A DNA stretch of 49,795 nt from an uncultured Pseudobdellovibrionaceae bacterium (lineage in GTDB: Bacteria > Pseudomonadota > Alphaproteobacteria > Micavibrionales > Micavibrionaceae), in assembly GCA_964409255.1 (NCBI GenBank), contig CAYPCP010000001.1, forward strand, positions 1 to 49,795. Reading direction: 5' to 3'. This document shows positions 1 to 44,846 of this stretch, in pieces. The notes beneath the pieces are model-generated. The model worked only from the letters and a program-made list of their open reading frames with translations, was not told the origin of the DNA and ran no database searches. Within the stretch, counting starts at the first letter, position 1. Every line of letters begins with the position of its first letter. The position numbers and the translations under genes were made by a program.

Positions 1-3000
1 AAACGTTCACGCCTCCCGCCGTTGCGCAGGTGTTGGGAGAGTTGACGATACAAACCAAGCGCTGTGCTGTGTTGCAGGCGAGCATATCTCCCGCCCATCC
101 ATCATGAATCCAGCGGTTTTCGTTTGTTTTATTTGAATTACCGTACAGACCACTATTGCCAGAAGAAGAGTTTTCCCAACCCTCGCAAGTCCAACCGTCT
201 GAATCATCATTTGGTTCATTTTCCCAATAATTTGAAGATCCATAGACGTCGCCGCGATTGGTCCAGTAATTTACGTTTCCACCAAAATATGTTGCCCCGG
301 ACCAATTATTTGCGTTATTGGGGCCCTTACCCATACTGTTTGTTGTAAAGGTCGCCCCGCCGACAGTAGCAGAGCCGGACCTCGCAAATTTATAAGACGT
401 AGAGGGCATAAGGCTGTTGCATTCATCACGACTACAAAGGAAAGCCTTAACTGTTGACGCGTTCAATGTCGCTGAACTTTTTCCAAGCCACGGATTAGCC
501 TGAAGGTCTGCCAAACATTTGTTGTTCGCCCCACTCAGGCCTCCTAAGTTTCCATTCCAGGTGCCAGAGGTCAAAACGAAGTATGGATCTTGACCGCCGC
601 TGCCTGCAAATTCGCAAGAACAAGCGCGTCTTGTGCCAGAGGCGGCCGCCGCTTCTAAGGTAGCCGTGGTTCCGCGTCTTCTTGTGCTTCCGCTTACCTG
701 ACAGCCCATAGTATTGGTTATGTTGCTGGAGTTGCCGCTGCCAGATGCAGAAAGCGCAGTAAGGACAGAACCGCAATTGGCATTGCTCCCCCCGCTACCG
801 GCGTAGGTTACTGTGGGTCCGCTGGCATTGTATGTTCCACCGACCGCGGTACACATGTCACCGCAACCCTGATTGTCTTCGGCTAGGAACCAGCATGCGC
901 CACCCACTTCGACTCCGCCACTTGTAGCGCAGGTGGGTCCTGTGGGCATTGCGGGCGGGTTACAAGCGCAGGCGCGGTGGGCGGTCCCTGATGAGTAAGC
1001 TGCGGTTGTCGTTGCTGTACCGCGATAACGACCTGCGTTTGCTTCGCTAATATAACATCCGCCAGCATTCGATATGGTCGTTGTAGAATTTCCACCGGCA
1101 CCAAATGCGTCCATGATGGCATCGCAATTCGTGTTTAGTCCGCCGCTGCCGCCATAAGACTCGGTGGCTGAATTATATGTGCCGCCAATTCCTGCGCAGA
1201 CGGTCGTACAAGTCTGGTTGACATCGCCAAGGAACCAGCATGCACCACCCACTTCATATCCGCCCGCATACGTACAATCGTTGGTCGATGATGCGTTGCT
1301 CGGGTGTACCATGCACACATAACGGTTGGTAAAGTTACAATATGCAGACTGAGTATTAAATCGGTCGCCATTCGTGTTGTTTGGTCCGCCAAGAAGCCCC
1401 ATGGAGCTCATCGAGCCATCAGTCCAATCCGTACACGAGGAATACAGGCCGCTTCCCGCGCCCCATTTGGTGGAACTGGATGCCAGACGTCCCGACCAAT
1501 AATTACCCGTTGTCCCGAAATGGGTTGCCGAAGACCAGTTATTGGCATTATTGGGTCCGATCCCGCTTGCATCTGCTGTCATAGACGCGCCGCCAGTCGA
1601 CAAACTGCCCATGGCCCCAAAGAAATACTCTTTATTTGGCTTAAGATTGTTGCAAACACTTGGATCGGTGAGCGTATCTGTGCACAGGAATGCTTTAACG
1701 GTCGTGCTGTTTAAGGTTGCGTTAGACTTTCCTTTCCACAATTTTGTTTTGAGGTTTGCAAGACACAGGGAGTTTGCAGCGGCGATCCCTCTGAAGTCAC
1801 CATTTTTAACTGTATCGGAAATTACAAAGTAGCCTGGTGTGGGCACCAAAGGTACATTGCCCAAATCGCAAGCGCAGGCCTGTTGGATGTTGGGTGCGTA
1901 TGCCGAGCAGCTTGTCGTCGGAGACGTTATGCGCGAACGTTCGCCGGATCCGTCCCAGTTGCAAGCCAGTCCAAAATAAGAGGTGCTGTCTGTTACAGAT
2001 CCGCTTCCCGTTTTGCCCAGAGCATTCAGAATGTTAAGGCAATTTGTATTCGATCCACCCGAACCGGCGTAATCTTTGGTGCCGGAAAGGTTGCAGGTAG
2101 AGCCTGCCGCAGAACATGTCTGGTCGCAGCTTTTGTTCGCGCCGGATTTAATCCAGCAGAATCCGCCGATGTATTTCCCGCCTGCTTCTTCGCAAGGGCT
2201 CAATCCAGGGCATGTCCAAGGTTCAATGCTTTTATATGTTCCACTGGTATTTGTGCCGTTCCCCACTGCTACGGGCGTTGAGACATCATACCCTGAACCA
2301 CCGCCCAGATTTCCGCCTGCTGCGGCCCCGCCGCCCCAGCAATATTGTCTGTTATTCGTACCGATGGCGCAGGTGACATAACTTCCTGCCGCGATGTTTT
2401 TATATGTGCCGCTGCTGTTGGCGCCATTCAAAACCAAGGTGGGCGCAAAGGCGGTCGATGTCCCGCCGTTACCAATCCCGCCATACGTATTATTTCCCCA
2501 GCAGTAAGCTTTATCGTCCGTGGCGATACCGCATGAATGAACGTTGCCAGAACTAATTTGTTTGAATGTTGATGGTCCTCCACCATTGGTGGCTGCGACA
2601 GGGGTGATCTGGTCCGTTCCGTATGATCCCGCGAGTAGGCCGCCGCCGCCGCTGCCCCAACAATAAACGTAATCATTCATGCCGATCCCGCAGGTAACTC
2701 CGTCGCCTGTACTGATCTGCTTGTATGTACCCGTTGGGTTGGCACCGTTGCGGGCAAGAACTGGTGAATTTCTTTGGGTTTTGGAATTATCGCCGACTTG
2801 CCCGCTGCCGTTTTTGCCCCAACAATAAACTTTGCTATCCATGCCTAAGCCGCAGCTATGGTCATAGGCAACGCTGATCTGCTTGTATGTGCCCGTGGGG
2901 TTTTCGCCGTTAAGAACGGCAACAGGAGTGGTTCTTGATACAGCGCTGCCATCCCCGATCTGGCCGCCGTCGCCCCGCCCCCAGCAATACGCCTTGCCAT

Positions 3001-5107
3001 TCATATCAAGGCCGCATGTGTGCTGGTTGGCGCTGAGCTGTTTATACGTTCCTGAAGCATTCGCGCCGTTGCTGACCGCCACGGCTGTATGTGTGCTGGT
3101 TGCAGTTCCATCGCCAAGCGCGCCATAATTATGGTCACCCCAGCAATACGCCTTATTATCTGCGCCAATGGCACAGCTATGACCTGTGCCGCCGACGACT
3201 TGCTGGAACATGCCGGACGAGTTGGCGCCGTTCAGGACGGTAGCCGGTGCTGTGCGGTTGGCTGTCGTACCGTCGCCAAGCCTTTGCACTCCCGTTCCTT
3301 GCCTACCCCAACAATATGTTTTGTAATCCGCGCCAATCGCACAAGCATGCGCCCCACCCATCGCGATAATGGGCTTAAAGGCCTTTTCGCATCCTTCGCT
3401 GTCCTCTGATGCCGGGCATGTGCCCGTCGCGGCATCCTGTGATACGGCGCAGAGAAGATAGCGTTGGTTGTTACATTGCTGCGCGCTTCCTTGAACAAAG
3501 CGTCCATCGTCTGTTGAGTTCGCCAATCCATGTACACCCATGTACGATGTCGTACCATCAGTATAACCATTGCATTTGTATGCGTTCGTTGTAGCAAACT
3601 CTGTGTTGTTCCAACCGTTTCCTGTATGTGAACGGTTCATCCAGTAAGTCACGGGTCCTAAAACAGTGCTCCAATTGTCGCTGTTATTGGGACCGAATCC
3701 ATTGCTATCCGTCGTGAAGGGAAGCCCGTACTTAGACGGATCTCCCGAGACAGCGAGGTTGTAAGTTTTGTTGGCACTCAGGCTGTTACATGTCCCGCCT
3801 GCGCAGAAGAATGCCTTGACCGTCGTGCTGTTCAGCGTGACGGCTGATTTCCCTTGCCAGTCATTGGCCTGAAGGTCGGCCAGACATTTCGCGGTTGCTC
3901 CGGCAAGGCCGCCCAGATTTCCGTTCCATGTCGCTGCGGTTCTGACCAGAAAGTGAGAATCCTGTTTTGTTTTCACGCAATTTTCGCATGCCGTTGCCGA
4001 TGAACCTGCCGGCCCGCCGGAAAGGACCGCTGTCTTCGTTCCGACACAGGCATTGGTGCCCGTAACATGAGAGCAGCATGTCGCGCCCGCGTCCTCGCAC
4101 AATGCGGCGCATTGCGATTTGTTGACGCCGCCAGTGTACTGGAACAACACTTGTTGCGGATCAGAGGCGCTGGTGCATGTGTTGCTTTCTACAAATGATG
4201 CATAACACGCGGTTTCAGCCAGCGGCTGTTTAACGCCTTCGGCGACCTGCCGGATGGAAACAGTCAGGTATGTTTCATTTACACCTGCGGCGCTGGCGGC
4301 CCGGCCAAGGCCGTATGCGCCGCCGGTGGTCGTTTCGTAATGCTGTATCTTGATGGTCGACGTACCGCTTAAAACGAACGTGCCGCGAATAACGCTGTGA
4401 GGGCTTTGTCCGCCCGTGGTTCCATTAAGAAGCGCAGTATTGCTCGTCTGATTGAAAAGCCGGGTCCCGACAACGCCGCCGCTGTAAAGGGGGACTGTCG
4501 CGTCGATATAATACGTACCGGCTGGCAAGGAGATGAGGTTCGTCGCCAGGCCTGCGCCAGACACCGTGTTGAGCAGAACGGTGCTCAGCGCATGATCCAC
4601 CCAGCTATTAAGCGCGCCGGAAGCAACGGAGGTGCCCGAAGAACGTTGGTCGATTGCGATAAATATTCCGGGAGTCAGTCCATCCGGGTCATCGGTGGTG
4701 CAATTTACGAGCGTTCCATCACCAACGCACCATTTGCCCGCTGTCAAAGTGCCGACCTGCGGATCTGTTTCCGCTGTGCCCGACAATGAATCAAGATATG
4801 CTTTATTGGCGGCATCCGTGCCGTCTACGGGTGCTCCAAGATTGATGATTTTCGATCCTGCAGCATCAAGGTTTTGTTTGGCTATGTGATTTCCCAAACT
4901 ATCGCCTGAGCCTTCCCCGCCTTCGACGCGGGCCATCCCGATCCAGATCGATCCATTGCAAAACTGCATCAGATTGCTGGTGGAATTATAAACCTGATCG
5001 CCTTCAAGACCGGCAGGATTGTCGCAAGCGGCGTATGCAGGGTTTGCGATAGCAAGCCCTATGAATGTAAAAACAACAGCTAAAAATTTTATTTTCAAAC
5101 CTTGCAT
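1..5107 (-). CDS. Giant secreted mosaic fibre/adhesin-like protein, N-terminal 1702 codons (C-terminus beyond the left window edge); absent from the supplied ORF track
   Basis: Manual minus-strand translation from ATG (cat at 5105-5107) is open for all 1702 codons down to nt 2. No listed minus-strand ORF uses this frame (end coordinate = 1 mod 3) in 1-5107. The track evidently omits ORFs with no stop inside the window. N-terminus MQGLKIKFLAVVFTFIGLAIANPAYA/ACDNPAGLEGDQVYNSTSNLMQFCNGSIWIGM is a signal peptide plus the Cys motif shared with the next two genes. Then: LGNHIAKQNLDAAGSKIINLGAPVDGTDAANKAYLD (tail-fibre collar-like); LPAGTYYIDA module; seven YCWG-centred RCC1-like repeats (about nt 2228-3376); three F(L/V)V..(T/K)(W/.)NGNLGGL.GA..KCLADL modules (DUF1554/endostatin-like; about 3443-3955, 1307-1834, 44-586); three Cys-rich ~105-aa modules (1868-2215, 962-1276, 614-931), with a fourth starting at the edge. 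Confidence 0.85.
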   Translation of the reverse strand, partial: MQGLKIKFLAVVFTFIGLAIANPAYAACDNPAGLEGDQVYNSTSNLMQFCNGSIWIGMARVEGGEGSGDSLGNHIAKQNLDAAGSKIINLGAPVDGTDAANKAYLDSLSGTAETDPQVGTLTAGKWCVGDGTLVNCTTDDPDGLTPGIFIAIDQRSSGTSVASGALNSWVDHALSTVLLNTVSGAGLATNLISLPAGTYYIDATVPLYSGGVVGTRLFNQTSNTALLNGTTGGQSPHSVIRGTFVLSGTSTIKIQHYETTTGGAYGLGRAASAAGVNETYLTVSIRQVAEGVKQPLAETACYASFVESNTCTSASDPQQVLFQYTGGVNKSQCAALCEDAGATCCSHVTGTNACVGTKTAVLSGGPAGSSATACENCVKTKQDSHFLVRTAATWNGNLGGLAGATAKCLADLQANDWQGKSAVTLNSTTVKAFFCAGGTCNSLSANKTYNLAVSGDPSKYGLPFTTDSNGFGPNNSDNWSTVLGPVTYWMNRSHTGNGWNNTEFATTNAYKCNGYTDGTTSYMGVHGLANSTDDGRFVQGSAQQCNNQRYLLCAVSQDAATGTCPASEDSEGCEKAFKPIIAMGGAHACAIGADYKTYCWGRQGTGVQRLGDGTTANRTAPATVLNGANSSGMFQQVVGGTGHSCAIGADNKAYCWGDHNYGALGDGTATSTHTAVAVSNGANASGTYKQLSANQHTCGLDMNGKAYCWGRGDGGQIGDGSAVSRTTPVAVLNGENPTGTYKQISVAYDHSCGLGMDSKVYCWGKNGSGQVGDNSKTQRNSPVLARNGANPTGTYKQISTGDGVTCGIGMNDYVYCWGSGGGGLLAGSYGTDQITPVAATNGGGPSTFKQISSGNVHSCGIATDDKAYCWGNNTYGGIGNGGTSTAFAPTLVLNGANSSGTYKNIAAGSYVTCAIGTNNRQYCWGGGAAAGGNLGGGSGYDVSTPVAVGNGTNTSGTYKSIEPWTCPGLSPCEEAGGKYIGGFCWIKSGANKSCDQTCSAAGSTCNLSGTKDYAGSGGSNTNCLNILNALGKTGSGSVTDSTSYFGLACNWDGSGERSRITSPTTSCSAYAPNIQQACACDLGNVPLVPTPGYFVISDTVKNGDFRGIAAANSLCLANLKTKLWKGKSNATLNSTTVKAFLCTDTLTDPSVCNNLKPNKEYFFGAMGSLSTGGASMTADASGIGPNNANNWSSATHFGTTGNYWSGRLASSSTKWGAGSGLYSSCTDWTDGSMSSMGLLGGPNNTNGDRFNTQSAYCNFTNRYVCMVHPSNASSTNDCTYAGGYEVGGACWFLGDVNQTCTTVCAGIGGTYNSATESYGGSGGLNTNCDAIMDAFGAGGNSTTTISNAGGCYISEANAGRYRGTATTTAAYSSGTAHRACACNPPAMPTGPTCATSGGVEVGGACWFLAEDNQGCGDMCTAVGGTYNASGPTVTYAGSGGSNANCGSVLTALSASGSGNSSNITNTMGCQVSGSTRRRGTTATLEAAAASGTRRACSCEFAGSGGQDPYFVLTSGTWNGNLGGLSGANNKCLADLQANPWLGKSSATLNASTVKAFLCSRDECNSLMPSTSYKFARSGSATVGGATFTTNSMGKGPNNANNWSGATYFGGNVNYWTNRGDVYGSSNYWENEPNDDSDGWTCEGWENSSSGNSGLYGNSNKTNENRWIHDGWAGDMLACNTAQRLVCIVNSPNTCATAGGVNV

Positions 5108-5132
5108 TGCGGATCTCTTAAATTTTTATCTG

Positions 5133-6059
5133 TTATGGTTCCGGTGTAGAGGAGATTTTCTTGATATAGATAGTAGATACGATGTCATCACCTGCGCCAA
5201 CGCCGATACCCAAATCGTTGTTTCCTGAATTCGTTGTGCCGTAATAATACTGAAGATCGATTGTGCCCGGCGCTTCCATATTGACATAGCCGGATGCGCG
5301 GCTATGGCCTGTTACGGCAAGCATGTAGATGGTCGTTCCATCTATGACCGGTGTTGATGTGTTTTTGACGATACGCGCCCGCGCATATTTTGCAATGCCA
5401 TAGAAAGCGGAATAGGCATCAATATAGTAACGGCCAACCGGAAGAGAGATGCTGCCGCTCGACAATGTAACGCCGGTAAGACCTTCGCAGGTTATGTTCG
5501 TCATGCTTCTTTTGGTCCATGCCGCAGATACGGCGGTTCCGCCATTACCGGCGGTTGGTATTGTCTGTATCGCTACGCATATTCCTCGCGGCGTAGCGCT
5601 AATCGCGGGCGGATCTGAGGTACAGACAATTTTCTCTCCGGCGGCGTCGGATTTACACCATTTTCCATTCGTTAAAGTTCCCACTTTGGGGTCGGCTTCC
5701 GATGTGCCGGTGCGCGCGTCGACGTAAGCTTTGGTTACCGCATCGCCTGGATCGGAAGGCGTGCCAAGATTAATCACCTTAAACCCGCCCATATCAAGAT
5801 TCTTGATTGCGGTGTGGTTGCCGAGGTCGTCAGGCCGCGGCTTAACAACCACACTCCCGTCCATCGATATCCAGTCGGCGCCGTCGCAAAACTGCATAAC
5901 ATTTTCTGTTGAGTTGTAAATCTGCGATCCTTCCGTTCCGATAGGCCCGCTGCAATTCGCGTAGGAAGAGGTCGGCGCACAGACAAGCAATCCCGCAATC
6001 GCTATAAGCGTTTGCAGTAATGGCTGTACCTGTCTGTGCTTTTCTACCATCTCGTCCAT
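5133..6059 (-). CDS. Short secreted fibre-like protein (minimal paralog of the two giant neighbours)
   Basis: 308-aa ORF; its ATG lies 3 nt after the upstream stop (6063). Hydrophobic N-terminus, then CSGPIGTEGSQIYNSTENVMQFCDGADWISM, DDLGNHTAIKNLDMGGFKVINLGTPSDPGDAVTKAYVDARTGTSEADPKVG..KWC (collar-like), and a C-terminal module LPVGRYYIDA...IDLQYYY...STIYIKKI shared with 1..5107 and 6063..10502. Confidence 0.8.
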   Translation of the reverse strand: MDEMVEKHRQVQPLLQTLIAIAGLLVCAPTSSYANCSGPIGTEGSQIYNSTENVMQFCDGADWISMDGSVVVKPRPDDLGNHTAIKNLDMGGFKVINLGTPSDPGDAVTKAYVDARTGTSEADPKVGTLTNGKWCKSDAAGEKIVCTSDPPAISATPRGICVAIQTIPTAGNGGTAVSAAWTKRSMTNITCEGLTGVTLSSGSISLPVGRYYIDAYSAFYGIAKYARARIVKNTSTPVIDGTTIYMLAVTGHSRASGYVNMEAPGTIDLQYYYGTTNSGNNDLGIGVGAGDDIVSTIYIKKISSTPEP

Positions 6060-6062
6060 CGG

Positions 6063-9000
6063 TTAATTTATTTTCTCTATCTTAAGAATGCCGTACGTTT
6101 CCGGCCCCGCAGCGTTCGGCATGCCGAACGGGGTGGGATCGGTCGAAGGTGTTCCGCTGATCAACACGGTCTGAAGTTTAATTGTGGCGGTCGACGATAA
6201 TGTGAATATTCCGCGCACATAGCTGTAAGTGATATGCCCCATCATAGGGGGAACAACGCCGGATCCGTTATAAGAAGGTGTTCCAGTGGCAAGAACGGCA
6301 CCGGCACTTGAATTGTACAAGCGGGCCTTTGCCGAACCATTCCGGGCAAACGGAACAACAGCATCGACATAATATTTTCCAGCAGGAAGCCTGATACCGC
6401 CATCGGTCATGATAATCTCCAGACTGTTTTGTCTGAGACGGTTTAGCGGATAATCGTACCAAGTTCCCGGTGTCATGCCGGTGGCCAGTCCTGCTGAACT
6501 GCCTTGAGTTTTTTCGCGCGCAGCAATCACAGTAAGCGGTGTTTCAGTGCCGCCAATGCTGGTCGCTGGTCCGCTTGGCGGGGCGACGGCGCAGAGAAGA
6601 TAATGTCCTGTGCTGCAAATAATACCACCTACGGGCTGCTCCCAGCGCGCGCTGTTGTTATAATTAGTGGCAATACCTGTCCCGCCTTTTTCAGGTCCGG
6701 TTGCGTTGGTCCAGTTACTGCAATGTGCAGTATTCGGTCCCGCTCCCCATTTTGTGCTTGTTCCCGTCGCGCGGTTTGTAAAGAAGCGACCGCTGTGCTG
6801 CGTTAATGCTTCTGTGTCTCCACCCCACGCATTTGAATCGTTCGGGCCAAGACCAGCGGCATCCGTCGTAAATGATTTACCCCCCTGAGTAGGTTCATCC
6901 GCCGCGGCAAAGGTATATTTTGTGTTGGGGGCGAGATCCTGACAAGTCGTGCTGTCGCAAAGCCATGCTTTGACTGTCGAGCTATTCAACGTAGCTTCGG
7001 ATTTCCCCTTCCAGTCAAAATCCTGAAGATCATCCAGACATTTCTGATTTGCTCCGGAAAGCCCGCCCAAATTGCCGGTATAAAGCCGCCTGCCCAGTAC
7101 AAAATATCCCGTTGGCCCGCTATCCGGATCTTTGTCGCAATTGATGACGCCGGAATTGGTCGCACACCATTTGCTTGCAGTGACAGCGCCAATCTTGGGA
7201 TCGGTTTCATTCGTGCCAGTGCGTGCGTCGATATACGCCTTGGTCGCGATATCCGTACCTGCCGACGGCGCACCCACATTGATGATGCGGTTGTTGTTCA
7301 TATTGATGTCTTTTGTCGCGGTATGATTCCCGAGATCGTCACCACCGACTTTACAAGCGCAGGCGCGCTGCACGCCGGCGGTGGCGGATAATTCCGTCGT
7401 CGCTAACGTCCCTCTGTAACGCAACGATCCGCTCAAGTAACAACCATGCGCGTTCGACGCGTTGGCGGCCGTCGTGCCTGCGGCGCCGAGCGCCGTCATG
7501 ACCGCCTGACAATTGGCTGCGTTACCGCCGCTCCCGGCATAGGTCAGTGTCGTATCATCATAAAGTCCGAAATTATCTTCGCATACTTTTTTGCAGCTAC
7601 GCCCGTTTCCGCCCAAGAACCAGCACGCATTGCCAACAAAATCACCTTCGGCATTGTCGCAACGCTCTTCCGCCGTTATATCGACGCTGCCGGTGCCAGC
7701 GCCATCGCCGAAAAATCCTGAACTTGCGCCGTTGGCGACTTTTGTCGGCACATTGCGGCTAATATTGTTGCCATCGCCAATTGAGTAATTTCCGCCACCA
7801 CCCCAGCAATACGCTTTGTTGTCGCTGGCAATGCCACAGACCGTACTACTGCTGCTGCTTTCTATGGTCCTGAAGCCTCCCGAGCTTTCGCCATTTAAAA
7901 CGGCGACCGGTGTAGGGCTGTCAACATTCGTGCCGTTGCCCAATGACCCTTGCGAGCCCATGCCCCAGCAATAGACTTTGTTATCAGTGCCGATAGCGCA
8001 CGTCTGCGCTTCCCCGGCAGTTATTTCTTTGTAGGTCCCGGGACCTTCGCCATTATTTACCAGCACTGGAATCAGACTATCCGCTGCAGGCCCTGTTGTG
8101 CCTAGCTGGCCACTAGAGTCGCTACCCCAACAATATGCTTTATCATCGGTACCAATGGCGCATGTATGTCCTTGACCGGTCGCAATTTTTTTAAACGTTC
8201 CTGGCGACGCGCCATTCAGGACAAGTGTCGGCGGCCCGCCTGCGGTTTGTGTTGTTGTATTATTTCCTAATTGTCCGCTGGAATTATAACCCCAGCAATA
8301 GGCTTTATTATCTGTACCAATCGCGCAGTGGCTGGCGGTTGAAGTAGATCCTAGATATTTGTATGTTCCTGCAGCATTCGCGCCATTTGAAACCACGCGT
8401 GGTACGGCGCTGCTTCCACCCGGACTTCCCATACCCCATGTCAAACCCCAGCAGTAAACTTTATTGTCAGTTGCAAGGCCGCAGGCTGTGTAAGCCGAAA
8501 CGGATAAAGATGTAAACGTTCCCGGCGATCCGCCGTTTTGAACCAATACGGGTTTATGGCTTGTAACGCCCTCGGCATTGTTTCCCAGTTCACCGTAATT
8601 GTTTAATCCGCCCCAGCAATATGTACTGTTGTTTGTATGTATGGCGCAGGTCTGATAATCAGTTTCGATAAGTTTATAGCTGTTGGAGACGTCCTCGCTT
8701 GATACTTCCACCGCCGTCGCTCTGTTCGTGGTGGTGTTGTCACCGACCGTACCTCGTGCGTTATAACCCCAGCAATAAGCCTTTCCGTCCGTGCCTATGG
8801 CGCAGCTTGTCTGACTCCCAGTCGATATTTTACCACGCTCCATAAGGGCGTTGCTTTCGCCGCCACTTGTGTCGGGGATCTGCTTCATACACCGCAAAAT
8901 TCTTGATGTACCAGTTCTGTTGCTGTTCCCCTTTGCGCCGTCGCTAAAACGTTGAATGACTTGGTTGATGGCATTTTCAGTTGAAGACCAGTAATAAGTT

Positions 9001-10502
9001 CCCGTCGTATTGATTCCCAGTGCGCTAAGATCAAGCAGGCCGCCTTGAGTTGTGCTATTTATCCAAAGAAGATTAAGTTCATCTTCAGATGGTATGTTCC
9101 ATTCCGCGCCAACAGTTCTACAATTACTGGCAGCAGGGTGCGAACCAGCGCCAGCTGCAATCATAGCATCCGTATTAACCTTGCCGTCGGTTGTTCCTGT
9201 CGTGCCTGGAGTTGATGTATTTACCGTCTTTAGGGTAACGCTGGCTGTTTCTTGATTACGCATTAAAATGCGGTTTGCACCGATTTTACCGATGTAAATG
9301 GAGCCATCGCTGCAAGCGGAGCCAATCGCACCCGTTGTGCAGTCACTGGTGCCACCACTTTCGCTGGTTCCGCAATCTTTGATATAAAGACCACCCCCTG
9401 GGCGACCTGCAAACATGACATTGCCATCACCAGAAACTGTGCCGCTGAACCATTGGCCTGTTCCCAGAATTGTTTCTTCATTCCATGCCACGCCACCATT
9501 AACGGAGGTAAAATATTTTTGACCACTGCCGCCTCCGCCCGCAATTAACGTCATGCCATCGTCAGATGAACTAAGGATGTTCCACGTCTGTACAGGAGAA
9601 TTAGTTTGTTCTGACCAAGTATCCCCCCCATCTGTAGAGGTGAATAATTTCTCACCGCTAGCGCCCGCGATAAGACGCATACCATTGGCTGAAGAGGCAA
9701 CTACTGCCCAGCTTTTGTTCCCGGCTGTAGGGCGTGTCGTCCATGTGTTTCCACTGTCTGTCGATATATAAATATAGTTAGTGCCTGCTGCGATAACTCT
9801 CTGACCGTTGGCAGACATTGCAAGACTTTTCCAAAAACCGGAACCGGGGTTGGACAATGCCGTCCAATTATCCCCACCATCCGTTGATCGGTATATAGTT
9901 CCGCTACCAGCTCCTGAATTTGTTGCATAGATGATTTGGCCGTTCGGTGACATCGTGATGGCATTGAAGCGTCCCGAGGGCGCACCGCCACCAGAGATCA
10001 TTGTCCAATTTTTTCCTGAATCGATTGAACGATAAAGTCTTCCGGCTACGGCGCTATTTCCTGCGATAACTCTCACCCCATCTGCGGAGCTTGCCAAGGG
10101 ATACCACTGCGAAGCACTGCCTCCAGAGTCAGGTGGCGCCCATGATTGCCCTCGATTCGTAGAAACGGCGAAGTCAGAACCATTGGCAGCAGCAACAATC
10201 TTTGATCCATCGGTAGAGGATGCGATACCACGCCAGACTCGCGTACCAAGTGAGGTTACTTCTTCCCATTCACAACTGCCTCCCCCGCTGCCACCGCTGC
10301 CGGGAAGGCCCAGCGAATTCCCCCACATCGGGATCCATTTTGCGCCGTTGCAATATTGCATGACTTTGGATGTGGAATTGTAAATCTGGTCGCCGGCGTA
10401 CCCGGTCGGGCCAGAGCATGCGGCCAGCGCTTCGCGCGTTGGCGATCCCAACGCAAGCAGCATGATCAGGCTCAGTGCCCCTCCCGCGGCGAGGAGGCGC
10501 AT
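6063..10502 (-). CDS. Giant secreted mosaic protein: BNR/Asp-box propeller + DUF1566-like + 7x RCC1-like + Cys-rich module + tail-fibre collar + DUF1554/endostatin-like + C-terminal beta-module
   Basis: Track ORF is 6063..10595. I prefer ATG 10502 (MRLLAAGGALSLIMLLALGSPTREALAA/CSGPTGYAGDQIYNSTSKVMQYCNGAKWIPM), 4 nt after the upstream TAA (10507-10509). Six Asp-boxes spaced ~42-45 aa (STNRGQSW, SIDSGKNW, STDGGDNW, STDSGNTW, STDGGDTW, SVNGGVAW; about 9381-10274). EWNIPSEDELNLLW...YYWSSTE...SRILRCMK is DUF1566/Lcl-C-like (8880-9323). Seven YCWG repeats of ~52-55 aa period (7716-8828). Cys-rich module 7353-7661. DDLGNHTATKDINMNNNRIINVGAPSAGTDIATKAYIDARTG at 7146-7340. YFVLGRRLYTGNLGGLSGANQKCLDDL...HYLLCAV at 6588-7109. 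LPAGKYYVDA...ILKIEKIN at 6066-6548. Confidence 0.9.
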   Translation of the reverse strand: MRLLAAGGALSLIMLLALGSPTREALAACSGPTGYAGDQIYNSTSKVMQYCNGAKWIPMWGNSLGLPGSGGSGGGSCEWEEVTSLGTRVWRGIASSTDGSKIVAAANGSDFAVSTNRGQSWAPPDSGGSASQWYPLASSADGVRVIAGNSAVAGRLYRSIDSGKNWTMISGGGAPSGRFNAITMSPNGQIIYATNSGAGSGTIYRSTDGGDNWTALSNPGSGFWKSLAMSANGQRVIAAGTNYIYISTDSGNTWTTRPTAGNKSWAVVASSANGMRLIAGASGEKLFTSTDGGDTWSEQTNSPVQTWNILSSSDDGMTLIAGGGGSGQKYFTSVNGGVAWNEETILGTGQWFSGTVSGDGNVMFAGRPGGGLYIKDCGTSESGGTSDCTTGAIGSACSDGSIYIGKIGANRILMRNQETASVTLKTVNTSTPGTTGTTDGKVNTDAMIAAGAGSHPAASNCRTVGAEWNIPSEDELNLLWINSTTQGGLLDLSALGINTTGTYYWSSTENAINQVIQRFSDGAKGNSNRTGTSRILRCMKQIPDTSGGESNALMERGKISTGSQTSCAIGTDGKAYCWGYNARGTVGDNTTTNRATAVEVSSEDVSNSYKLIETDYQTCAIHTNNSTYCWGGLNNYGELGNNAEGVTSHKPVLVQNGGSPGTFTSLSVSAYTACGLATDNKVYCWGLTWGMGSPGGSSAVPRVVSNGANAAGTYKYLGSTSTASHCAIGTDNKAYCWGYNSSGQLGNNTTTQTAGGPPTLVLNGASPGTFKKIATGQGHTCAIGTDDKAYCWGSDSSGQLGTTGPAADSLIPVLVNNGEGPGTYKEITAGEAQTCAIGTDNKVYCWGMGSQGSLGNGTNVDSPTPVAVLNGESSGGFRTIESSSSSTVCGIASDNKAYCWGGGGNYSIGDGNNISRNVPTKVANGASSGFFGDGAGTGSVDITAEERCDNAEGDFVGNACWFLGGNGRSCKKVCEDNFGLYDDTTLTYAGSGGNAANCQAVMTALGAAGTTAANASNAHGCYLSGSLRYRGTLATTELSATAGVQRACACKVGGDDLGNHTATKDINMNNNRIINVGAPSAGTDIATKAYIDARTGTNETDPKIGAVTASKWCATNSGVINCDKDPDSGPTGYFVLGRRLYTGNLGGLSGANQKCLDDLQDFDWKGKSEATLNSSTVKAWLCDSTTCQDLAPNTKYTFAAADEPTQGGKSFTTDAAGLGPNDSNAWGGDTEALTQHSGRFFTNRATGTSTKWGAGPNTAHCSNWTNATGPEKGGTGIATNYNNSARWEQPVGGIICSTGHYLLCAVAPPSGPATSIGGTETPLTVIAAREKTQGSSAGLATGMTPGTWYDYPLNRLRQNSLEIIMTDGGIRLPAGKYYVDAVVPFARNGSAKARLYNSSAGAVLATGTPSYNGSGVVPPMMGHITYSYVRGIFTLSSTATIKLQTVLISGTPSTDPTPFGMPNAAGPETYGILKIEKIN

Positions 10503-10506
10503 CCTG

Positions 10507-11829
10507 TTACCGGTCCTGTTTAAGTGCATCGATATCTTTCCGCAGCGTTGCATTTTCGTCCCTGAGCTGCTTGACGGCTTCGATGAGAGGCGCAATCAAC
10601 TGGTCGTATTCCACAGACTTCACGCCGTTGCTGTCGGTTGCGACGGCCTCGGGCATAACGGTTTCAACATCCTGCGCGATCACGCCGAAGGCGGGCGCGC
10701 CGTTTCTTTTCCAGACGTAATGTTTCCCGTGGATGGCATCGAGCAGGGTGAACGGGTCTGCGATGTCGGTGATTTTATCTTTCAGGTTTCGGTCGGAGGA
10801 GTGCAGGTACGCCGCCGCCGTCACCGTGTCAGCGCCCAGAACCTTGAAGCCGGACATGTTCAAATCCTGCGTCGCGGTATGATCGCCGAGATTGTCGGAG
10901 CCGCCACCGCCGCCACCGCCGCCGCCCGAGGCGCCGCCTTCCGGCGGGTCGCCGGGAATAAGCGGGAAGCGTAACGGCGAATCCATCGCGACCGTGCCGT
11001 TAAGCGTTTTGGATTGAATGGAATCGGTTTTGATCGCCATGAATTCCCCGATCCCCTGTTCGCTGTCGAGGCTGAAGCTGACGACGCCGCTGCTGTCGCG
11101 GACCTCAAGGTCTTTTTGAATCTGCGCCGTGTTGGAATCGCCCGATTTCAAATTCCACAGACCGCCGCCCGCGCTGTTCGCTTCGGCATAGGTGTAGCTA
11201 TGGATGACGTCGTCCGATCCCGGCACGCGGATCAATGTCGGTTCGTTGTCTTCGACCACGCCGTTTCCGTTCCCGGCGGCGTCGGCCGCGGCGGCGGAAA
11301 TACAGCTTGTCTGGAATTGTCTGTCAGGACCGGCGGAGATAACCGCGATGGAAATAAGGTTTTGCTGGTTGGCGCCGGCGAGGCGGTGATTGGTGCCCGG
11401 CGGGCTTTCGCATGCGGCCTGCATGGTCGCGGTGCCGTGGTCCCATACGCAGTACCCGTAACGGTTCTGCCACGGATCCTGCAACGACGCGCCGATCGAC
11501 GCGGGCAGGTGACCCCCGCCGCTTGGCGCCGGAAGACTCGACGCCGGTTCGAACATCACGGGTTCGATCATCGTGTCGTTGTCGCAATCCCCGCCATCCG
11601 CGCCCGCGGTCGCGCCCATCACGGCGAGTTTTGATGAGGCCATCATATTGTTTTCGGCAATGGTGCGCTTGGTCACTTCGGACATGCTGCGCACGGGGCC
11701 TTTCATGATCTGCATCGACGCAGCGCCGACAGCCCCGACCAGGGCCACGGCCCCGAACATGGTGAAGAAAATATTCCCTGACTGGCTGTCTCTCAAGCCA
11801 TTGATAAGGCTGAAAATCCCCTTGCCCAT
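10507..11829 (-). CDS. Pilin-like N-terminus fused to a tail-fibre-like stalk and a C-terminal peptidase-S74 intramolecular chaperone domain
   Basis: 440-aa ORF with AAGGAG 7 nt upstream of the ATG. N-terminal ..SQSG/NIFFTMFGAVALVGAVGAASMQIM hydrophobic helix, plus DPWQNRYGYCVW and ISAGPDRQFQT (GspG/pseudopilin-like motifs). Gly8 run, then DNLGDHTATQDLNMSGFKVLG (collar-like). The end SSDRNLKDKITDIADPFTLLDAIHGKHYVWKRNGAPAFGVIAQDVETVMPEAV...VEYDQLIAPLIEAVKQLRDENATLRKDIDALK matches the endosialidase/tail-fibre chaperone (S-DRxLK autocleavage site) as I remember the family. Confidence 0.9.
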   Translation of the reverse strand: MGKGIFSLINGLRDSQSGNIFFTMFGAVALVGAVGAASMQIMKGPVRSMSEVTKRTIAENNMMASSKLAVMGATAGADGGDCDNDTMIEPVMFEPASSLPAPSGGGHLPASIGASLQDPWQNRYGYCVWDHGTATMQAACESPPGTNHRLAGANQQNLISIAVISAGPDRQFQTSCISAAAADAAGNGNGVVEDNEPTLIRVPGSDDVIHSYTYAEANSAGGGLWNLKSGDSNTAQIQKDLEVRDSSGVVSFSLDSEQGIGEFMAIKTDSIQSKTLNGTVAMDSPLRFPLIPGDPPEGGASGGGGGGGGGSDNLGDHTATQDLNMSGFKVLGADTVTAAAYLHSSDRNLKDKITDIADPFTLLDAIHGKHYVWKRNGAPAFGVIAQDVETVMPEAVATDSNGVKSVEYDQLIAPLIEAVKQLRDENATLRKDIDALKQDR

Positions 11830-12096
11830 CCGTTGCTCCTTCGGCGAGGCCGCCCCTGACTGACGGCTAAAACCCTCTTATCCCTTAACAATTCTGACAC
11901 GGATGTATTTAAATAAAATTAATACTATCCGGGTGTGCAAGAGAGACGGAAGGCTTATGTATTTGATAAATAAATAAAAACTTAGAGGACCTAAAAGAAT
12001 CGCGAAATCGTTAACGCAAAAAGGAAAATGCGTTTCGACTACGCCTGACGCCTAGTCTATCAAAGAAACAGCCTGTGGAAAAGTCTTTGGAACGGC

Positions 12097-17374: not shown

Positions 17375-17450
17375 TGGTGGAGACGAGGAGGATCGAACTC
17401 CCGACCTTCGCAATGCCATCGCGACGCTCTCCCAGCTGAGCTACGTCCCC
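17375..17450 (-). tRNA. tRNA-Ala (anticodon GGC)
   Basis: Reverse complement GGGGACGTAGCTCAGCTGGGAGAGCGTCGCGATGGCATTGCGAAGGTCGGGAGTTCGATCCTCCTCGTCTCCACCA folds as a 76-nt cloverleaf. G3:U70 Ala identity pair, anticodon loop AT-GGC-AT, GTTCGATCC T-loop, encoded CCA. Confidence 0.95.
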
Positions 17451-23222: not shown

Positions 23223-24071
23223 ATGATGCTCCTCCGCCTTTCCGTTTTCCTGCTGGCCTTGTCACTTCCGGCGATGGCTTTCGCCCAGAACGCGACCAAA
23301 CTTCCCGAAGTGCCCGCCGCCATTCAGGACCTCGTCGATCGCGGCGCGCAGATCCGCTATCTGGGCAAAAAACACGGCATGGACGGCTGGATCACGATCT
23401 ATCAGGGGCAGGAGCAATATTATTACGTCACCCCCGACAAACAGGGGTTCGTGATGGGCGTCCTGTTCGACAAGGACGGCGCGATGGCCACCGTCGAACA
23501 GGTGCGTAAGCTGCAGGCCGAAGGCGGCGATGTGCTCGACTTCCTCGCGATGGATGCGCCCGCCAAGCCCGAACCCGCCCTGAAATCCGTCGGTGATGTG
23601 AAAAATCCCGCCACCCCGGCTGAAAAAATGCTGGCCGACGTCGAAAACAGCAATTCGATCGCGCTGGGCAATAAAGACGCGCCGGTCATCTATTCCTTCG
23701 TCGATCCGAACTGCCCGCACTGCCATGATTTCATGAACGACCTGCGCAAGGACTATATCGAAAAAGGCCTGATCCAGGTGCGCATCATCCCGGTCGGTTT
23801 CAACGAAATGTCGCTCTCTCAGGCCGCTTTCCTGCTGGCCGCGCCCGATGCCGCGGACCGCTGGTTCAAGCATCTCGATGGCGACACGGCGGCCCTGCCG
23901 ACCGACAGCAATGTCAGCACCCAGGGCGTTCAGAAAAATCTCGCCCTGATGCAGGCGTGGAAATTCACCGTCACGCCGCTTTCGGTTTACAAGGGCCGCA
24001 ACGGCGATATCAAGATCGTCCGGGGCCGGGTGAAGGACCTCAACGCCCTTTTGGCCGATCTGCCGTCGTAA
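23223..24071 (+). CDS. Periplasmic thiol:disulfide interchange protein, DsbC/DsbG-like
   Basis: Signal peptide MMLLRLSVFLLALSLPAMAFA. N-terminal dimerisation-like region (IRYLGKKHGMDGWITIY...YYVTPDKQGFVMGVLFDKDG). Thioredoxin fold with the CPHC active site (FVDPNCPHCHDF). Confidence 0.75.
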   Translation: MMLLRLSVFLLALSLPAMAFAQNATKLPEVPAAIQDLVDRGAQIRYLGKKHGMDGWITIYQGQEQYYYVTPDKQGFVMGVLFDKDGAMATVEQVRKLQAEGGDVLDFLAMDAPAKPEPALKSVGDVKNPATPAEKMLADVENSNSIALGNKDAPVIYSFVDPNCPHCHDFMNDLRKDYIEKGLIQVRIIPVGFNEMSLSQAAFLLAAPDAADRWFKHLDGDTAALPTDSNVSTQGVQKNLALMQAWKFTVTPLSVYKGRNGDIKIVRGRVKDLNALLADLPS

Positions 24072-26449: not shown

Positions 26450-27301
26450 ATGCGCTCGCCATTCGCTCCGCGTTTTCTCCTGACATTGATCGCCGCTCTG
26501 GCGATCGGTGCCGTTGCATGCGCGGGCGCGGCGTCGGCGTCGCTTCTGGATGATGCGGATGATCCGCCGCCGCCATCGCTCAGCGAACTGCAATCCCTGC
26601 CCAAGGAAAATAAAAACATCGAAAGCGGCATGCCGATCGATATTCGCGGCGACGCGATGAAAGAATCCGCGCTGTCTTATGGCGCCCGTGGCGGTCTTGC
26701 GTGGCGCACGTTTGAAATTCGTCAGGAAATGGAAACCCGCGCCCGTTACATGGACAAGGTGTTCGATTTCCGCCAGCTGTTGATCCCCGCGCAATCGGGC
26801 CTGCTGATCGAACCGCCGGTAATCTCCGAACAGCTCGATGCGATGATCATCGATTCAAGCGGTCAGAACGCCGCCGTGGCGGATCAGGTGCTTAATATCG
26901 GCCGCAATGCCCGCATCGTTTCCGCGCCGCGCACATGGCGTGCCTATCTGGAACGCCAATGGGGCGATGTTTCGCCGCCGCCCGATATCCTGCGTCCTGA
27001 AAACCCGCTGGAACGCGATCAATGGAATGCCGCCGTTGCCGAAGGCTGGAAAGCCGGCGTTCAACAGGCCGATGATATTTTCCAAACCGATCTGAATAAA
27101 CTGGTTGCCGATTACCAAGGGATGATCCGGTATCGCACCCTTCTTTCCCAGGGCATGGTATCGCCGCCTTATGCGCTTCAAACCGACCGCGGTGTCACCG
27201 GCGGCGGTAGCGAAATGCGCGTTGGCGACCGTGCCTTGACCATCACCGCGCCCCCCGCCCTCAAGCCCCAGTATAATCAATGGTCGCCCGCAGACCGATA
27301 A
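26450..27301 (+). CDS. dotC: Type IVB secretion lipoprotein DotC (TraI-like)
   Basis: N-terminal signal with Cys (AIGAVAC). ALSYGARGGLAWR, LLIEPPVISE, RTWRAYL, MIRYRTLLSQGMVSPPYALQTDRGVTGGGSEMRVGDRALTITAPPAL parallels Legionella DotC (..MILYRKLLAMNMVSPPYVSHTDLGVTGDGSEIHIDDRVLRITALPEL, from memory). It starts 4 nt after the dotD stop. Confidence 0.92.
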   Translation: MRSPFAPRFLLTLIAALAIGAVACAGAASASLLDDADDPPPPSLSELQSLPKENKNIESGMPIDIRGDAMKESALSYGARGGLAWRTFEIRQEMETRARYMDKVFDFRQLLIPAQSGLLIEPPVISEQLDAMIIDSSGQNAAVADQVLNIGRNARIVSAPRTWRAYLERQWGDVSPPPDILRPENPLERDQWNAAVAEGWKAGVQQADDIFQTDLNKLVADYQGMIRYRTLLSQGMVSPPYALQTDRGVTGGGSEMRVGDRALTITAPPALKPQYNQWSPADR

Positions 27302-28449
27302 GCCTTCTTAAATCGAAGGACAGCGTCGCCGAAACATGGATCGATGAACCCACGCGGTTTACCGATGCGCATGTCGATCCGTTCATTCTGTGGTGCGTGA
27401 AGAAAAACTCGTCCGATATTTCCATCCAGACCGACCGGCCGATTTACAACGAAATTTACGGCACGCTCTATCCCGGCACGTTCCGCCCGATCGACGCGGC
27501 CGACATGGGCGTGTTCCTGCATAAAATTTACGGGCCGGATGCCACTGCGCGTCTGGCGTCGGGAACCGATCTCGATCTGTCTTACGAAATCCGCCCCGAT
27601 CGTTATACGCGCGTGCGCTTTCGTGTGAACGTTACGCCGATCCTGTCCCGTGGCCGTGATTCTGCGCAGATCACAATGCGCGTCCTACCCAGCGAACCGC
27701 CGACGATGGAAGATCTCAACGTCGAAGAGGCGATTATCAAGGCCTGGAATCCGCGGCAGGGCATGGTCGTTATCACCGGCCCGACGGGTTCGGGGAAAAC
27801 CACGCTGCTTGCCGCCGGTATCCGCATGTTGATCGAGCGCAAGCGCGGGGCCGGAAAAATCGTCTGTTACGAAGCGCCGATCGAATATGTGTATGACGCG
27901 ATCAAATCGCCGCGCTCCCTGATTTCACAAACTGAAATTCCGCGCCACCTGCCGGACTTCGCCCGCGGCGTGCGCAACGCGCTGCGCCGTAAACCGAACA
28001 TCATCCTGGTGGGTGAGGCGCGGGACAAGGAAACGATTTCCGCCGCGATCGAAGCCTCGCAAACCGGCCACACCGTGTATACGACGACCCACACGGTCGG
28101 CGTGTCCGCGACGATCCAGCGTATGGTCGCCACCTTCGATCCGGGCGAGCGTTCCGAACGCGCGTACGCGCTCATGGAAACGATCCGCCTGATCGTGACC
28201 CAGACGCTGGTGCCGAAGGTTGGCGGGGGCCGTCTGGGCGTGCGGGAATGGATGGTGTTCTCGGACGAGGTCCGCGATAAATTCCTGTCCATGGACTTCA
28301 AGCTCTGGCCCGCCGAGATCCAGCGTATTATCCAGTTCAACGGCCGCACCATGGCCAATTCCGCCGGTATCGCCTTCGATGCCGGATTAATCGACCGCCG
28401 CACTTATATTATGCTATCATCGAGTACGGGCGCCGGTGGCGGCGATTAA
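27280..28449 (+). CDS. dotB: Type IVB secretion ATPase DotB (PilT/TraJ-like)
   Basis: IDEPTRFTDAHVDPF, ITGPTGSGKTTLLAA (Walker A), SQTEIPRHLPDFARGVRNALRRKPNIILVGEARD, TGHTVYTTTHT. Near-colinear with Legionella DotB as I remember it. Overlaps the dotC 3' end by 22 nt. Confidence 0.95.
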   Translation: MVARRPISLLKSKDSVAETWIDEPTRFTDAHVDPFILWCVKKNSSDISIQTDRPIYNEIYGTLYPGTFRPIDAADMGVFLHKIYGPDATARLASGTDLDLSYEIRPDRYTRVRFRVNVTPILSRGRDSAQITMRVLPSEPPTMEDLNVEEAIIKAWNPRQGMVVITGPTGSGKTTLLAAGIRMLIERKRGAGKIVCYEAPIEYVYDAIKSPRSLISQTEIPRHLPDFARGVRNALRRKPNIILVGEARDKETISAAIEASQTGHTVYTTTHTVGVSATIQRMVATFDPGERSERAYALMETIRLIVTQTLVPKVGGGRLGVREWMVFSDEVRDKFLSMDFKLWPAEIQRIIQFNGRTMANSAGIAFDAGLIDRRTYIMLSSSTGAGGGD

Positions 28450-34021: not shown

Positions 34022-34079
34022 AAATCCGTGCCTTTCGACGTTCCGGGGCCGCACCGTACGGCCCTTCGAAAGGGATAAA

Positions 34080-34095
34080 TGCAAGGATGGTGCCA
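34080..34095 (-). promoter_or_regulatory. Sigma54 (-24/-12) promoter upstream of flgK
   Basis: The minus strand reads TGGCAC-CATCC-TTGCA, matching the TGGCAC-N5-TTGCW consensus at every position. It lies in the 103-nt gap between the stop of 34125..36095 and the flgK ATG, leaving a ~50-nt leader. Confidence 0.65.
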
Positions 34096-43762: not shown

Positions 43763-43982
43763 TCTGATTTTTTTATAACTTCTCCAACTACAGAAAATTT
43801 TATCATATTCAAAAAGCAAAACGCACATTCATTTCCGCCGACGCGCGGAGAAGGGGCTTATGGAATTTGTGCGGAGCCTTTCGAATATGGTCAAATAACA
43901 ATATAAAGTGGTTTTTTACTTCGCGCATCTGATACATAATGGAATCAGATCATTTTTGTCCTGTCCGGACGATTAGGAATTC

Positions 43983-44717: not shown

Positions 44718-44846
44718 TCGGACGCCTTTCTTGGCTGAGGGTAACCTGCGCGCAAGGCATATACAGGGCGGCTTTCCCGCGATATGGTAGGGCGGGGCAT
44801 GCAGATTCGCATTCGGCCTTTCTTTAGGTGTACGGTAATTTTCGAC

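Follow-up and report, generated by a model that had tools for sequence, protein, structure and literature searches.

To our knowledge, the mosaic adhesive trimer (MAT) fibres of Bdellovibrio, described in 2024, are the only characterised fibre adhesins of predatory bacteria, and we know of no account of the way in which epibiotic predators, Micavibrio among them, recognise their prey and keep hold of it. Our study concerns a cluster of four genes, P1 to P4, that lies beside secB at the start of a 49,795-nt stretch of DNA from an uncultured Micavibrio-like alphaproteobacterium (GenBank assembly GCA_964409255.1, contig CAYPCP010000001.1, positions 1 to 49,795; "the window" below means this whole stretch). 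We read this cluster, with a probability of roughly 70%, as a chromosomal, mosaic set of extracytoplasmic, trimeric adhesins that resemble phage tail fibres, in which a conserved first protein (P1) ending in a Peptidase_S74 domain is followed by three paralogs (P2, P3 and P4) with a common core and differing cargo.

The closest characterised system is the MAT fibre family of Bdellovibrio bacteriovorus (Caulton et al. 2024, PMC10769870). Both systems consist of cell-encoded, signal-peptide-bearing, tail-fibre-like proteins of S74 and non-S74 subtypes that join a constant N-terminal module to variable mosaic tips of phage ancestry and occur in multiple copies in a predator lineage. The fibre is phage-like in either case and ends in an S74 domain (here in P1) or another tip, and the tip of P3 matches those of the MATs Bd2734 and Bd2439. 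An earlier note on this DNA, made from the sequence alone, had likened the cluster to fibres of predatory bacteria in concept; the likeness goes beyond that, because the best PDB match of the shared tip domain is a MAT tip and the P1 family is concentrated in metagenome-assembled genomes (MAGs) labelled Micavibrio. As described in PMC10769870, however, MATs have a beta-rich N-terminal domain of ~130 aa behind the signal peptide, whereas the proteins studied here begin with a 290-aa helix-plus-beta N-terminal domain (NTD; P1) or with a 35-aa Cys-knob (P2 to P4). The host is an alphaproteobacterium and not a member of the Bdellovibrionota, the genes keep to a fixed 1+3 arrangement next to secB, and propellers, lectin-like domains and other cargo can be accommodated either ahead of the collar or behind the tip.

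Phage S74 tail fibres and tailspikes (K1F endosialidase 3gw6, the T5 L-shaped fibre or the S16/T4-type distal fibre 6f45) share the SDxxxK S74 domain as well as the collar with its DAxxKxYVD repeat (8vbx gp47), and C1q-type tips are also found in phage fibres. Unlike these, the cluster is chromosomal at a housekeeping site, carries export signals and has no virion genes among the open reading frames of the window that were submitted to Pfam, and P1 would retain a fibre stub of only ~30 aa after cleavage. Type IVb minor pilin systems (CofB-CofJ, TcpB-TcpF, the R64 PilV shufflon and S. sanguinis PilB) resemble the cluster in concept, in that they combine an N-terminally anchored trimeric tip protein with secreted proteins encoded beside it that are conserved at their extreme N-terminus, and they have variable C-terminal adhesin ends; some members of the P1 NTD family have Shufflon_N-type ends or lie on conjugative elements. 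In contrast to those systems, we found no class III signal peptide consensus, no Glu5, no match to a pilin hidden Markov model (HMM), no pilin among the top 50 fold matches and no neighbouring pilus operon, so that we regard CofB-CofJ and TcpB-TcpF (PMC6048534, PMC9565799) as working analogies and not as relatives. Finally, the C1q/TNF heads on bacterial fibres (Bacillus BclA and F-BclA) and of collagen VIII/X NC1 share the fold of the tip domain (TM-score to target 0.6-0.7, probability 1.0) and its place as the terminal part of a trimeric stalk, but the stalk is here a tail-fibre collar and not collagen, and in P4 over 1400 aa of additional domains come after the head.

In the papers searched we found no description of such a fibre family in Micavibrio or other alphaproteobacteria, and the M. 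aeruginosavorus genome paper discusses only RTX proteins and pil genes; the earlier note had not recognised the combination as a described system either, and no paper describing it came to light. The locus points to a second, alphaproteobacterial fibre family that uses the same phage-derived parts with different N-terminal anchoring modules. These modules are the uncharacterised 290-aa domain, for which Pfam has no model, and the 35-aa disulfide knob, and the site beside secB is a fixed chromosomal hot spot for cargo exchange. The proteins are concrete candidates for prey- or partner-binding and for a new mechanism of surface anchoring, and the presence of the NTD family in cultured Hyphomicrobiales and on conjugative elements could allow genetic study there.

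Organisation and paralogy of the gene cluster

The four genes are all encoded on the minus strand and follow each other with gaps of 4 nt (P1/P2), 3 nt (P2/P3) and 25 nt (P3/P4); the open reading frames (ORFs) and distances given for them in the earlier note are correct.

10507..11829, minus strand: P1, 440 aa, an ORF that is the conserved first gene of the cluster
6063..10502, minus strand: P2, 1479 aa when read from the ATG at 10502, the start chosen in the earlier note
5133..6059, minus strand: P3, 308 aa
<2..5107, minus strand: P4, more than 1702 aa, with its 3' end beyond the start of the window
11830..12096, minus strand: AT-rich spacer of 267 nt that separates P1 from secB and probably contains the promoter of the cluster

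The ATG at 10502 lies 4 nt from the P1 stop at 10507, and a second in-frame ATG at 10553, the start used in the gene call of the related locus L004, would make P2 overlap P1 by 47 nt; with either start, P1 and P2 are tightly coupled. A GAAGGAG Shine-Dalgarno motif is found 6 nt 5' of the P1 ATG. Scans for promoter and terminator consensus sequences gave nothing above shuffled background, so that we infer co-transcription from the spacing, which makes a single transcription unit of all four genes the most likely arrangement. The GC content of P2 to P4 is 50-54%, compared to 58-64% elsewhere in the window, which fits a foreign or recombinant origin of these variable fibre genes or a strongly biased amino-acid composition (they are rich in Gly, Ser, Thr and Asn).

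All four proteins contain the collar LG(N/D)HxA...L(N/D)(M/A), in the form of LGDHTATQDLNMSGFKVLG in P1, LGNHTATKDINMNNNRIINVG in P2, LGNHTAIKNLDMGGFKVINLG in P3 and LGNHIAKQNLDAAGSKIINLG in P4, with a shorter variant of the second half of the motif in P1. The corresponding regular expression, for which we roughly estimate ~0.1 chance hits in the window, matches no other window ORF of at least 120 aa. P2, P3 and P4 further have in common an extension of the collar (P....D...KAY(I/V/L)D), an N-terminal Cys motif and a module LP(A/V)GxYY(I/V)DA. In BLAST comparisons, P3 is 37% identical to residues 1-289 of P4 over 291 aa (E 6e-53), the alignment of P2 with P3 breaks up into three blocks, at the knob (E 3e-11), the collar (E 2e-23) and the tip (E 8e-8), and P2 aligns with P4 at E 8e-109. 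What P1 shares with these proteins is confined to ~25-45 aa of collar (E ~1e-4 in a four-protein database). Judged by these alignments, P2, P3 and P4 are true paralogs, far beyond chance. At the level of DNA, the paralogs have only 42-nt collar stretches of 69-76% identity in common besides the 162-nt periodicity of RCC1 repeats; since long near-identical repeats are missing, we ruled out DNA-level cassettes or recent gene conversion between them.

The collar extension of P3 matches tail fibre gp47 in the PDB (8vbx, E 8e-6), and the collar/DAxxKxYVD repeat also matches 23sh gp9 and the tail fibres phrog_2710, phrog_11393 and phrog_26630. Proteins with multiple copies of this repeat number in the thousands in a representative search. 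The full knob-collar-tip core is rare: A word-indexed search of 5.8 billion proteins returned 25 matches, and about a dozen full-length core representatives were among the best 150 listed by an exhaustive search. Single modules are common (14,319 representatives at E <=1e-3), with the knob nearly always at the N-terminus. The matches in the PDB and PHROG bear out the relation of the collar to tail fibres that the earlier note had proposed, and the remainder of its description of the proteins agrees with our comparisons as well: the collar in all four, its extension, Cys motif and LP(A/V)GxYY(I/V)DA module in the last three, and the view of these three as paralogous secreted mosaics with very large insertions, which amount to ~1000 aa between knob and collar in P2 and more than 1400 aa after the tip of P4.

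Common core and variable cargo of P2, P3 and P4

The modules of the three paralogs are arranged as follows (a slash marks a cleavage site here and below).

10320..10421, minus strand: P2 Cys-knob, aa 28-61, ALA/ACSGPTGYAGDQIYNSTSKVMQYCNGAKW, right after a predicted AxA signal-peptidase I site and matched by the knob HMM
7353..10280, minus strand: P2 cargo, aa ~75-1050, with a BNR/Sortilin-type propeller, an Lcl_C-like domain, an RCC1 propeller and a Cys-rich module of ~105 aa
6066..7343, minus strand: P2 core, aa 1054-1479, with collar, KAYID extension, TDP-KWC hairpin, an inserted DUF1554-like domain and a C1q/TNF-like tip
5856-5957, minus strand: P3 Cys-knob, preceded by a signal peptide; P3 is the minimal form
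5607-5831, minus strand: P3 collar/stalk
5151-5582, minus strand: P3 C1q/TNF-like tip
4928-5029, minus strand: P4 Cys-knob, preceded by a signal peptide
4664-4906, minus strand: P4 collar/stalk
4238-4660, minus strand: P4 C1q/TNF-like tip
2-4237, minus strand: P4 cargo

The order of domains is therefore knob-cargo-collar-tip in P2, knob-collar-tip in P3 and knob-collar-tip-cargo in P4. Pfam assigns the P2 cargo to WD40_RLD (E 7e-71), RCC1 (with repeats of 162 nt), Sortilin-Vps10 (E 2.5e-15), BNR and, below that family's own cut-off, Lcl_C (E 4e-5). The P2 core was delimited by BLAST to P3 and by an HMM of the core, which matches two blocks, and its inserted domain matches DUF1554 (E 6e-5). In P4, the cargo comprises Cys-rich modules, three DUF1554/endostatin-like domains (similar to LenA/B) and an RCC1 propeller. 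The Lcl_C-like and DUF1554/endostatin-like matches in the cargo are weak or sub-threshold. Searches of Pfam, NCBIfam and the PDB assigned no family to the knob or to two kinds of Cys-rich module.

The signal peptides of P2 to P4 end in AxA, which is followed by one residue and then Cys (AxA/xC). Because this is a signal-peptidase I site and not a lipobox, the 35-aa Cys-knob would be the extreme mature N-terminus; we rejected a reading of the Cys after the signal peptide as that of a lipoprotein, given that the residue at -1 is A, N, Q, D, L or V and that AxA/xC is conserved. Together with the conserved Cys pairs, the Sec signal peptides point to an extracytoplasmic location of all three proteins.

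The P3 tip (aa 160-303) was modelled by AlphaFold2 (AF2) with a predicted local distance difference test score (pLDDT) of 80-95. A Foldseek search of the PDB with it ranked the tip of Bd2734, a MAT fibre of Bdellovibrio (8okw, E 1.8e-5), first, ahead of EDA, TNF, C1q-like proteins, collagen X NC1, BclA, Bd2439 (8ol4) and the receptor-binding protein of phage 1358; altogether, 86 PDB entries match at E <=1e-3 with a TM-score to target of up to 0.71. The tip also matches tail fibre phrog_24210 (E 2e-7) and C1q-type fibres of phages and giant viruses in BFVD. The shared LPxGxYY module is thus, as far as the model and its structural matches tell, a TNF/C1q-like trimeric jelly roll.

An N-terminal domain family and an S74 domain in P1

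P1 differs from the paralogs in both its N-terminal and its C-terminal part.

10960..11829, minus strand: P1 NTD, aa 1-290, comprising a hydrophobic helix with the conserved sequence SGNIFFTMFGAVALVGAVGAASM and, behind it, an alpha/beta domain in which four Cys are almost invariant
10798..10938, minus strand: P1 Gly-rich linker and collar stub, aa 298-344, GGGGGGGGSDNLGDHTATQDLNMSGFKVLGADTVTAAAYLHS, disordered in the AF2 model and collar-like to P2 to P4
10510..10797, minus strand: P1 Peptidase_S74 chaperone/autoprotease domain, aa 345-440, SDRNLK with Ser345 and Lys350

Residues 345-396 match Pfam PF13884 with 44.3 bits (cut-off 22), and matches to this Pfam family are also present in 26 of 70 members of the NTD family. 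The Ser-Lys dyad SDxxxK at the start of the S74 domain (S345-D-R-N-L-K350 in AYLHS/SDRNLKDKI) aligns with SSDRRIK of phage fibre 6f45, against which the profile scores E 9e-13, and matches to tail-fibre C-termini in PHROG reach E 2e-29. At the level of fold, Foldseek retrieved the MyRF ICA (7dc3, E 1.8e-5, TM-score to target 0.57-0.60) and also listed 3gw6 (K1F) and 3gud. By these criteria the P1 C-terminus is a genuine S74 tail-fibre chaperone domain with predicted autoproteolysis, and aa 298-344 would form the new C-terminus of P1 once the domain cleaves itself off.

The AF2 model of the NTD begins with a 56-residue helix (aa 20-75) that is followed by strands, with pLDDT >90 at residues 50-220. 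Its hydrophobic segment, SGNIFFxMFGAVALVGxxGAAxM, is the best-conserved part of the family, which suggests that the helix is not a disposable signal peptide and is probably retained in mature P1. Neither Pfam nor the PDB holds a match to the NTD, and it defines an undescribed family of proteins of 400-3600 aa that are mostly encoded in Micavibrio-labelled MAGs. Full-length orthologs of P1 are 62-79% identical and occupy the same position after secB.

Relatives of the cluster and exchange of cargo

Among the contigs of one GTDB genome per species, we found 111 stretches coding for the NTD, mostly in MAGs labelled Micavibrio or Alphaproteobacteria. Other carriers are Hyphomicrobium, Mesorhizobium, Nitratireductor, Stappia, Brucella gallinifaecis, Falsochrobactrum, Aquamicrobium and Stella. 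Another ~60 proteins have no more than the NTD in common with P1, their C-termini being different and including S74, Shufflon_N, YadA head, Lcl_C, TSP1 and Gly_rich_2 domains. The order of secB followed by an NTD gene recurs at 19 related loci besides the window, even though their Tim44 proteins are only 40-84% identical to that of the window, and the far side of the cluster, where visible, is formed by dnaQ-GATase-coaE-aroE-maf; the insertion site adjacent to secB is both old and fixed.

In at least 17 loci, an NTD gene has knob genes immediately downstream. The same four-gene architecture, which the earlier note had proposed to look for in relatives, is found at L004 and L005 and once more at L085, which occupies another site on the chromosome and has a P1 of only 49% identity (these numbers designate related loci). 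The number of knob genes that follow is three for short NTD proteins (440-534 aa), where the cluster is visible in full, and zero to two for long ones (1000-2300 aa). Orthologous loci keep the knob-collar-tip core, with P3 being 46-75% identical to its positional orthologs, while the cargo differs from locus to locus: RCC1 and BNR in the window, LVIVD and Lectin_C at L005, and DUF1554 repeats at L004. This exchange of modules around a preserved core bears out the swapping of receptor-binding parts that had been suspected from the window itself. NTD and knob proteins moreover share stalk modules, i.e., the collar, KAYVD and the TDP-KWC hairpin.

NTD genes are also found on conjugative elements beside genes for relaxase and TraG, a context that suggests binding of other bacterial cells as the general job of the family. 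At L084 (9248-11959) and L087 (9036-11776), the NTD genes P0039 and P0038 adjoin a serine recombinase (Resolvase and HTH_7) among the conjugative-element genes ArdA, KlcB, relaxase and TraG/TrwB, a setting reminiscent of the PilV shufflon. Only short imperfect inverted repeats were present there, and a shufflon- or Gin-like inversion at these resolvase genes is unsupported. On the integrative/conjugative element of L089 (7369-11152), an 881-aa fibre with PTL_trimer and S74 domains and a knob-like N-terminus is followed by an overlapping gene for the knob protein P0008, with no NTD gene nearby. Tandem triplets are common in the family; at L043, L049, L058, L072 and L046, all in Micavibrio-labelled MAGs, they consist of large proteins that run from NTD to S74 (~1700, ~1300 and ~1100 aa), and the NTD is split or duplicated in the first member of each triplet.

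Proposed mechanism and alternative explanations

If the cluster encodes a set of trimeric adhesins, P1 would be the conserved anchor or adaptor, with the NTD helix residing in a membrane or in a filament-like assembly, and its S74 chaperone would fold the ~30-aa collar stub into a trimer before cutting itself off at Ser345. P2, P3 and P4 would be exported by Sec and cleaved at AxA/xC, so that each mature protein starts with the 35-aa disulfide-closed knob and continues with a tail-fibre collar or stalk and a trimerising TNF/C1q-like head, to which P2 and P4 would add their different binding cargo of RCC1/BNR propellers, lectin/endostatin-like domains and Cys-rich modules. The likely role of these proteins on the cell surface is to bind the surfaces of other cells, be it prey or partner; a fixed first gene, core and chromosomal site combined with exchanged cargo is the pattern expected for receptor-binding proteins under diversifying selection. 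The formation of trimers is proposed on the grounds of the S74 domain, the collar and the C1q/TNF fold. Speculatively, the knobs of P2 to P4 may dock onto the P1 stub that S74 cleavage would expose, a model that fits the linkage of the genes, the inverse relation between NTD protein length and number of knob genes, and the stalk modules common to NTD and knob proteins. Display of the fibres might further depend on a type IV pilus (T4P) or type II secretion system (T2SS).

Several observations weigh against this interpretation. The NTD family is not specific to predators because it also occurs in cultured, non-predatory Hyphomicrobiales and in Stella, and docking onto P1 is not generally required, since knob proteins also occur without an NTD neighbour, e.g., on the conjugative element of L089. 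The P1 NTD has no detectable homology to pilins or any solved structure. No T2SS/T4P operon was seen in the window, and classical prepilin ORFs of the GFTLIE type are absent from the window and 85 related loci, where we identified no outer-membrane export route. The AF2 monomer model of the P3 stalk is poor (pLDDT <50, residues 67-119), so that its trimeric state is deduced from homologs, and the support for the whole proposal is computational.

We also considered that P1 could be a true type IV pilin or pseudopilin-like subunit, namely a tip-located minor pilin without Glu5 that belongs to a T4P, T2SS or Tad-type machine encoded elsewhere, forms a trimer at the filament tip and exports or displays P2 to P4 via their knobs, much as the CofB trimer of enterotoxigenic E. 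coli binds the secreted protein CofJ at its N-terminus and TcpF is bound by TcpB in V. cholerae. This would account for the 56-residue N-terminal helix ahead of a beta sheet in the AF2 model, for the strong conservation of the hydrophobic helix and the Gly just ahead of it, and for the motifs DPW..Y.Y and S.G.D in P1, which we take to be reminiscent of GspG. It would also agree with an hhalign comparison to PulG that places SQSG/NIFF in register with the cleavage site RQRG/FTLLE, albeit over 23 columns and at 40% probability, with the existence of N_methyl and S74 fusions (P0106, P0110), with the Shufflon_N (PilV-type) C-termini of some NTD-family members, and with the knobs forming the very beginning of the mature proteins, a position that parallels CofJ and TcpF (PMC6048534, PMC9565799). 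However, the class III signal peptide consensus is missing throughout the family, as SQSG/NIFFTMFG has Gly at -1 but Asn instead of Phe or Met at +1 and Thr instead of Glu at +5. No N_methyl or pilin Pfam family matched 70 NTD members at E up to 1, no pilin sequence in the PDB matched the family profile at E up to 10, and none was among the top 50 PDB hits in a Foldseek search with the P1 model; pilus genes lie near none of the loci, and a length of up to 3600 aa, as reached within the family, would be extraordinary for a pilin. We therefore rejected a classical pilin identity of P1 and treat the NTD as an undescribed anchoring module with pilin-like topology; a non-canonical minor pilin is possible but doubtful. 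Of the pilin/tail-fibre hybrid that the earlier note saw in P1, the tail-fibre half stands with the S74 domain and collar, whereas the pilin half failed the tests of sequence, had no pilin among the top 50 fold matches and comes down to a general topology and a Gly in cleavage register.

C1q/TNF folds can form heterotrimers, and P2, P3 and P4 might contribute one chain each to a single fibre held together by their collars and heads, like the A, B and C chains of C1q; that one fibre would thereby carry three different sets of cargo. Exactly three core-bearing paralogs follow a short P1 in the window, L004 and L005, the same three are present at L001 and L002 (both cut off upstream), and the positional types (cargo before the collar, minimal, cargo after the tip) are conserved. 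Yet only one or two knob genes are found at L007, L010, L012, L035, L045 and L088, just one of the three knob proteins at L085 has a detectable core, and phage fibres as well as MATs are homotrimers (PMC10769870), which makes such a heterotrimer distinctly unlikely. Far less probable still is an origin from a phage, gene transfer agent (GTA) or tailocin, of which the cluster would be a remnant or a cargo and whose fibres would sit on a particle and not on the cell. Every shared module has a phage counterpart (S74, collar repeat, C1q-type tips), and the GC content is below that of the flanks; but fibres of virions that assemble in the cytoplasm lack the Sec signal peptides of P2 to P4 and the conserved hydrophobic N-terminus of P1, the housekeeping synteny from secB to dnaQ-coaE-aroE-maf is conserved over the deep divergence apparent from Tim44, and no capsid, terminase, tail or integrase gene was found among the window ORFs submitted to Pfam.

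Returning to the reading of the cluster as a set of trimeric adhesins on the cell, its most elaborate form would be a split, multi-subunit fibre. The short P1 would act as a membrane- or filament-anchored trimeric adaptor from a new pilin-like but non-canonical NTD family, into which the three secreted paralogs plug by their knobs, either directly or after forming a C1q-like heterotrimer, and the whole would be an exchangeable prey-recognition apparatus of a Micavibrio-like predator that evolved independently of, and parallel to, the Bdellovibrio MATs. We put this forward as a tentative conjecture that is rather unlikely to hold in all its parts.

Apart from the cluster, L086 (10001-12259) encodes P0110 (752 aa), a protein with S74 and a weak N_methyl prepilin signal whose gene lies in housekeeping surroundings, so that genuine pilin/S74 fusions seem to exist elsewhere.

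Genomic surroundings in the window

The window is a piece of alphaproteobacterial chromosome with secB, fxsA, a Tim44-like gene, mltA, flgK and Dot/Icm-type secretion genes, and tRNA-Ala (GGC) at 17375-17450 on the minus strand is its sole RNA gene in Rfam and tRNA scans. Parts of a type IVB secretion system (Dot/Icm or IncI-type) are encoded at 26450-28449 and 44784-47676, comprising a T4SS_TraI/DotC-like gene (E 4e-80), a T2SSE-family ATPase, DotH/IcmK (E 7e-83) and a TrbI/DotG-like gene. The ATPase is the only one of T2SSE type in the window and looks Dot/Icm-type because it adjoins T4SS_TraI. A DsbC-like gene is located at 23223-24071. The type IVB system is split by flagellar genes (flgK, 31571-34084) and five tandem paralogs on the minus strand (34125-43828). 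The latter encode proteins of 656, 487, 456, 939 and 696 aa in which a signal peptide is combined with dense clusters of Cys (e.g., CPCNPCPCVACCRCCP) and which have no Pfam match; they have in common a core '...DAKHQLETQRLFQ..AHKDYQPSEGLCEFGT...' and a C-terminal 'PSYYAQMEILTKKIYQDP.F...LYDKPANV', and their genes sit between flgK and the Dot/Icm-type genes.

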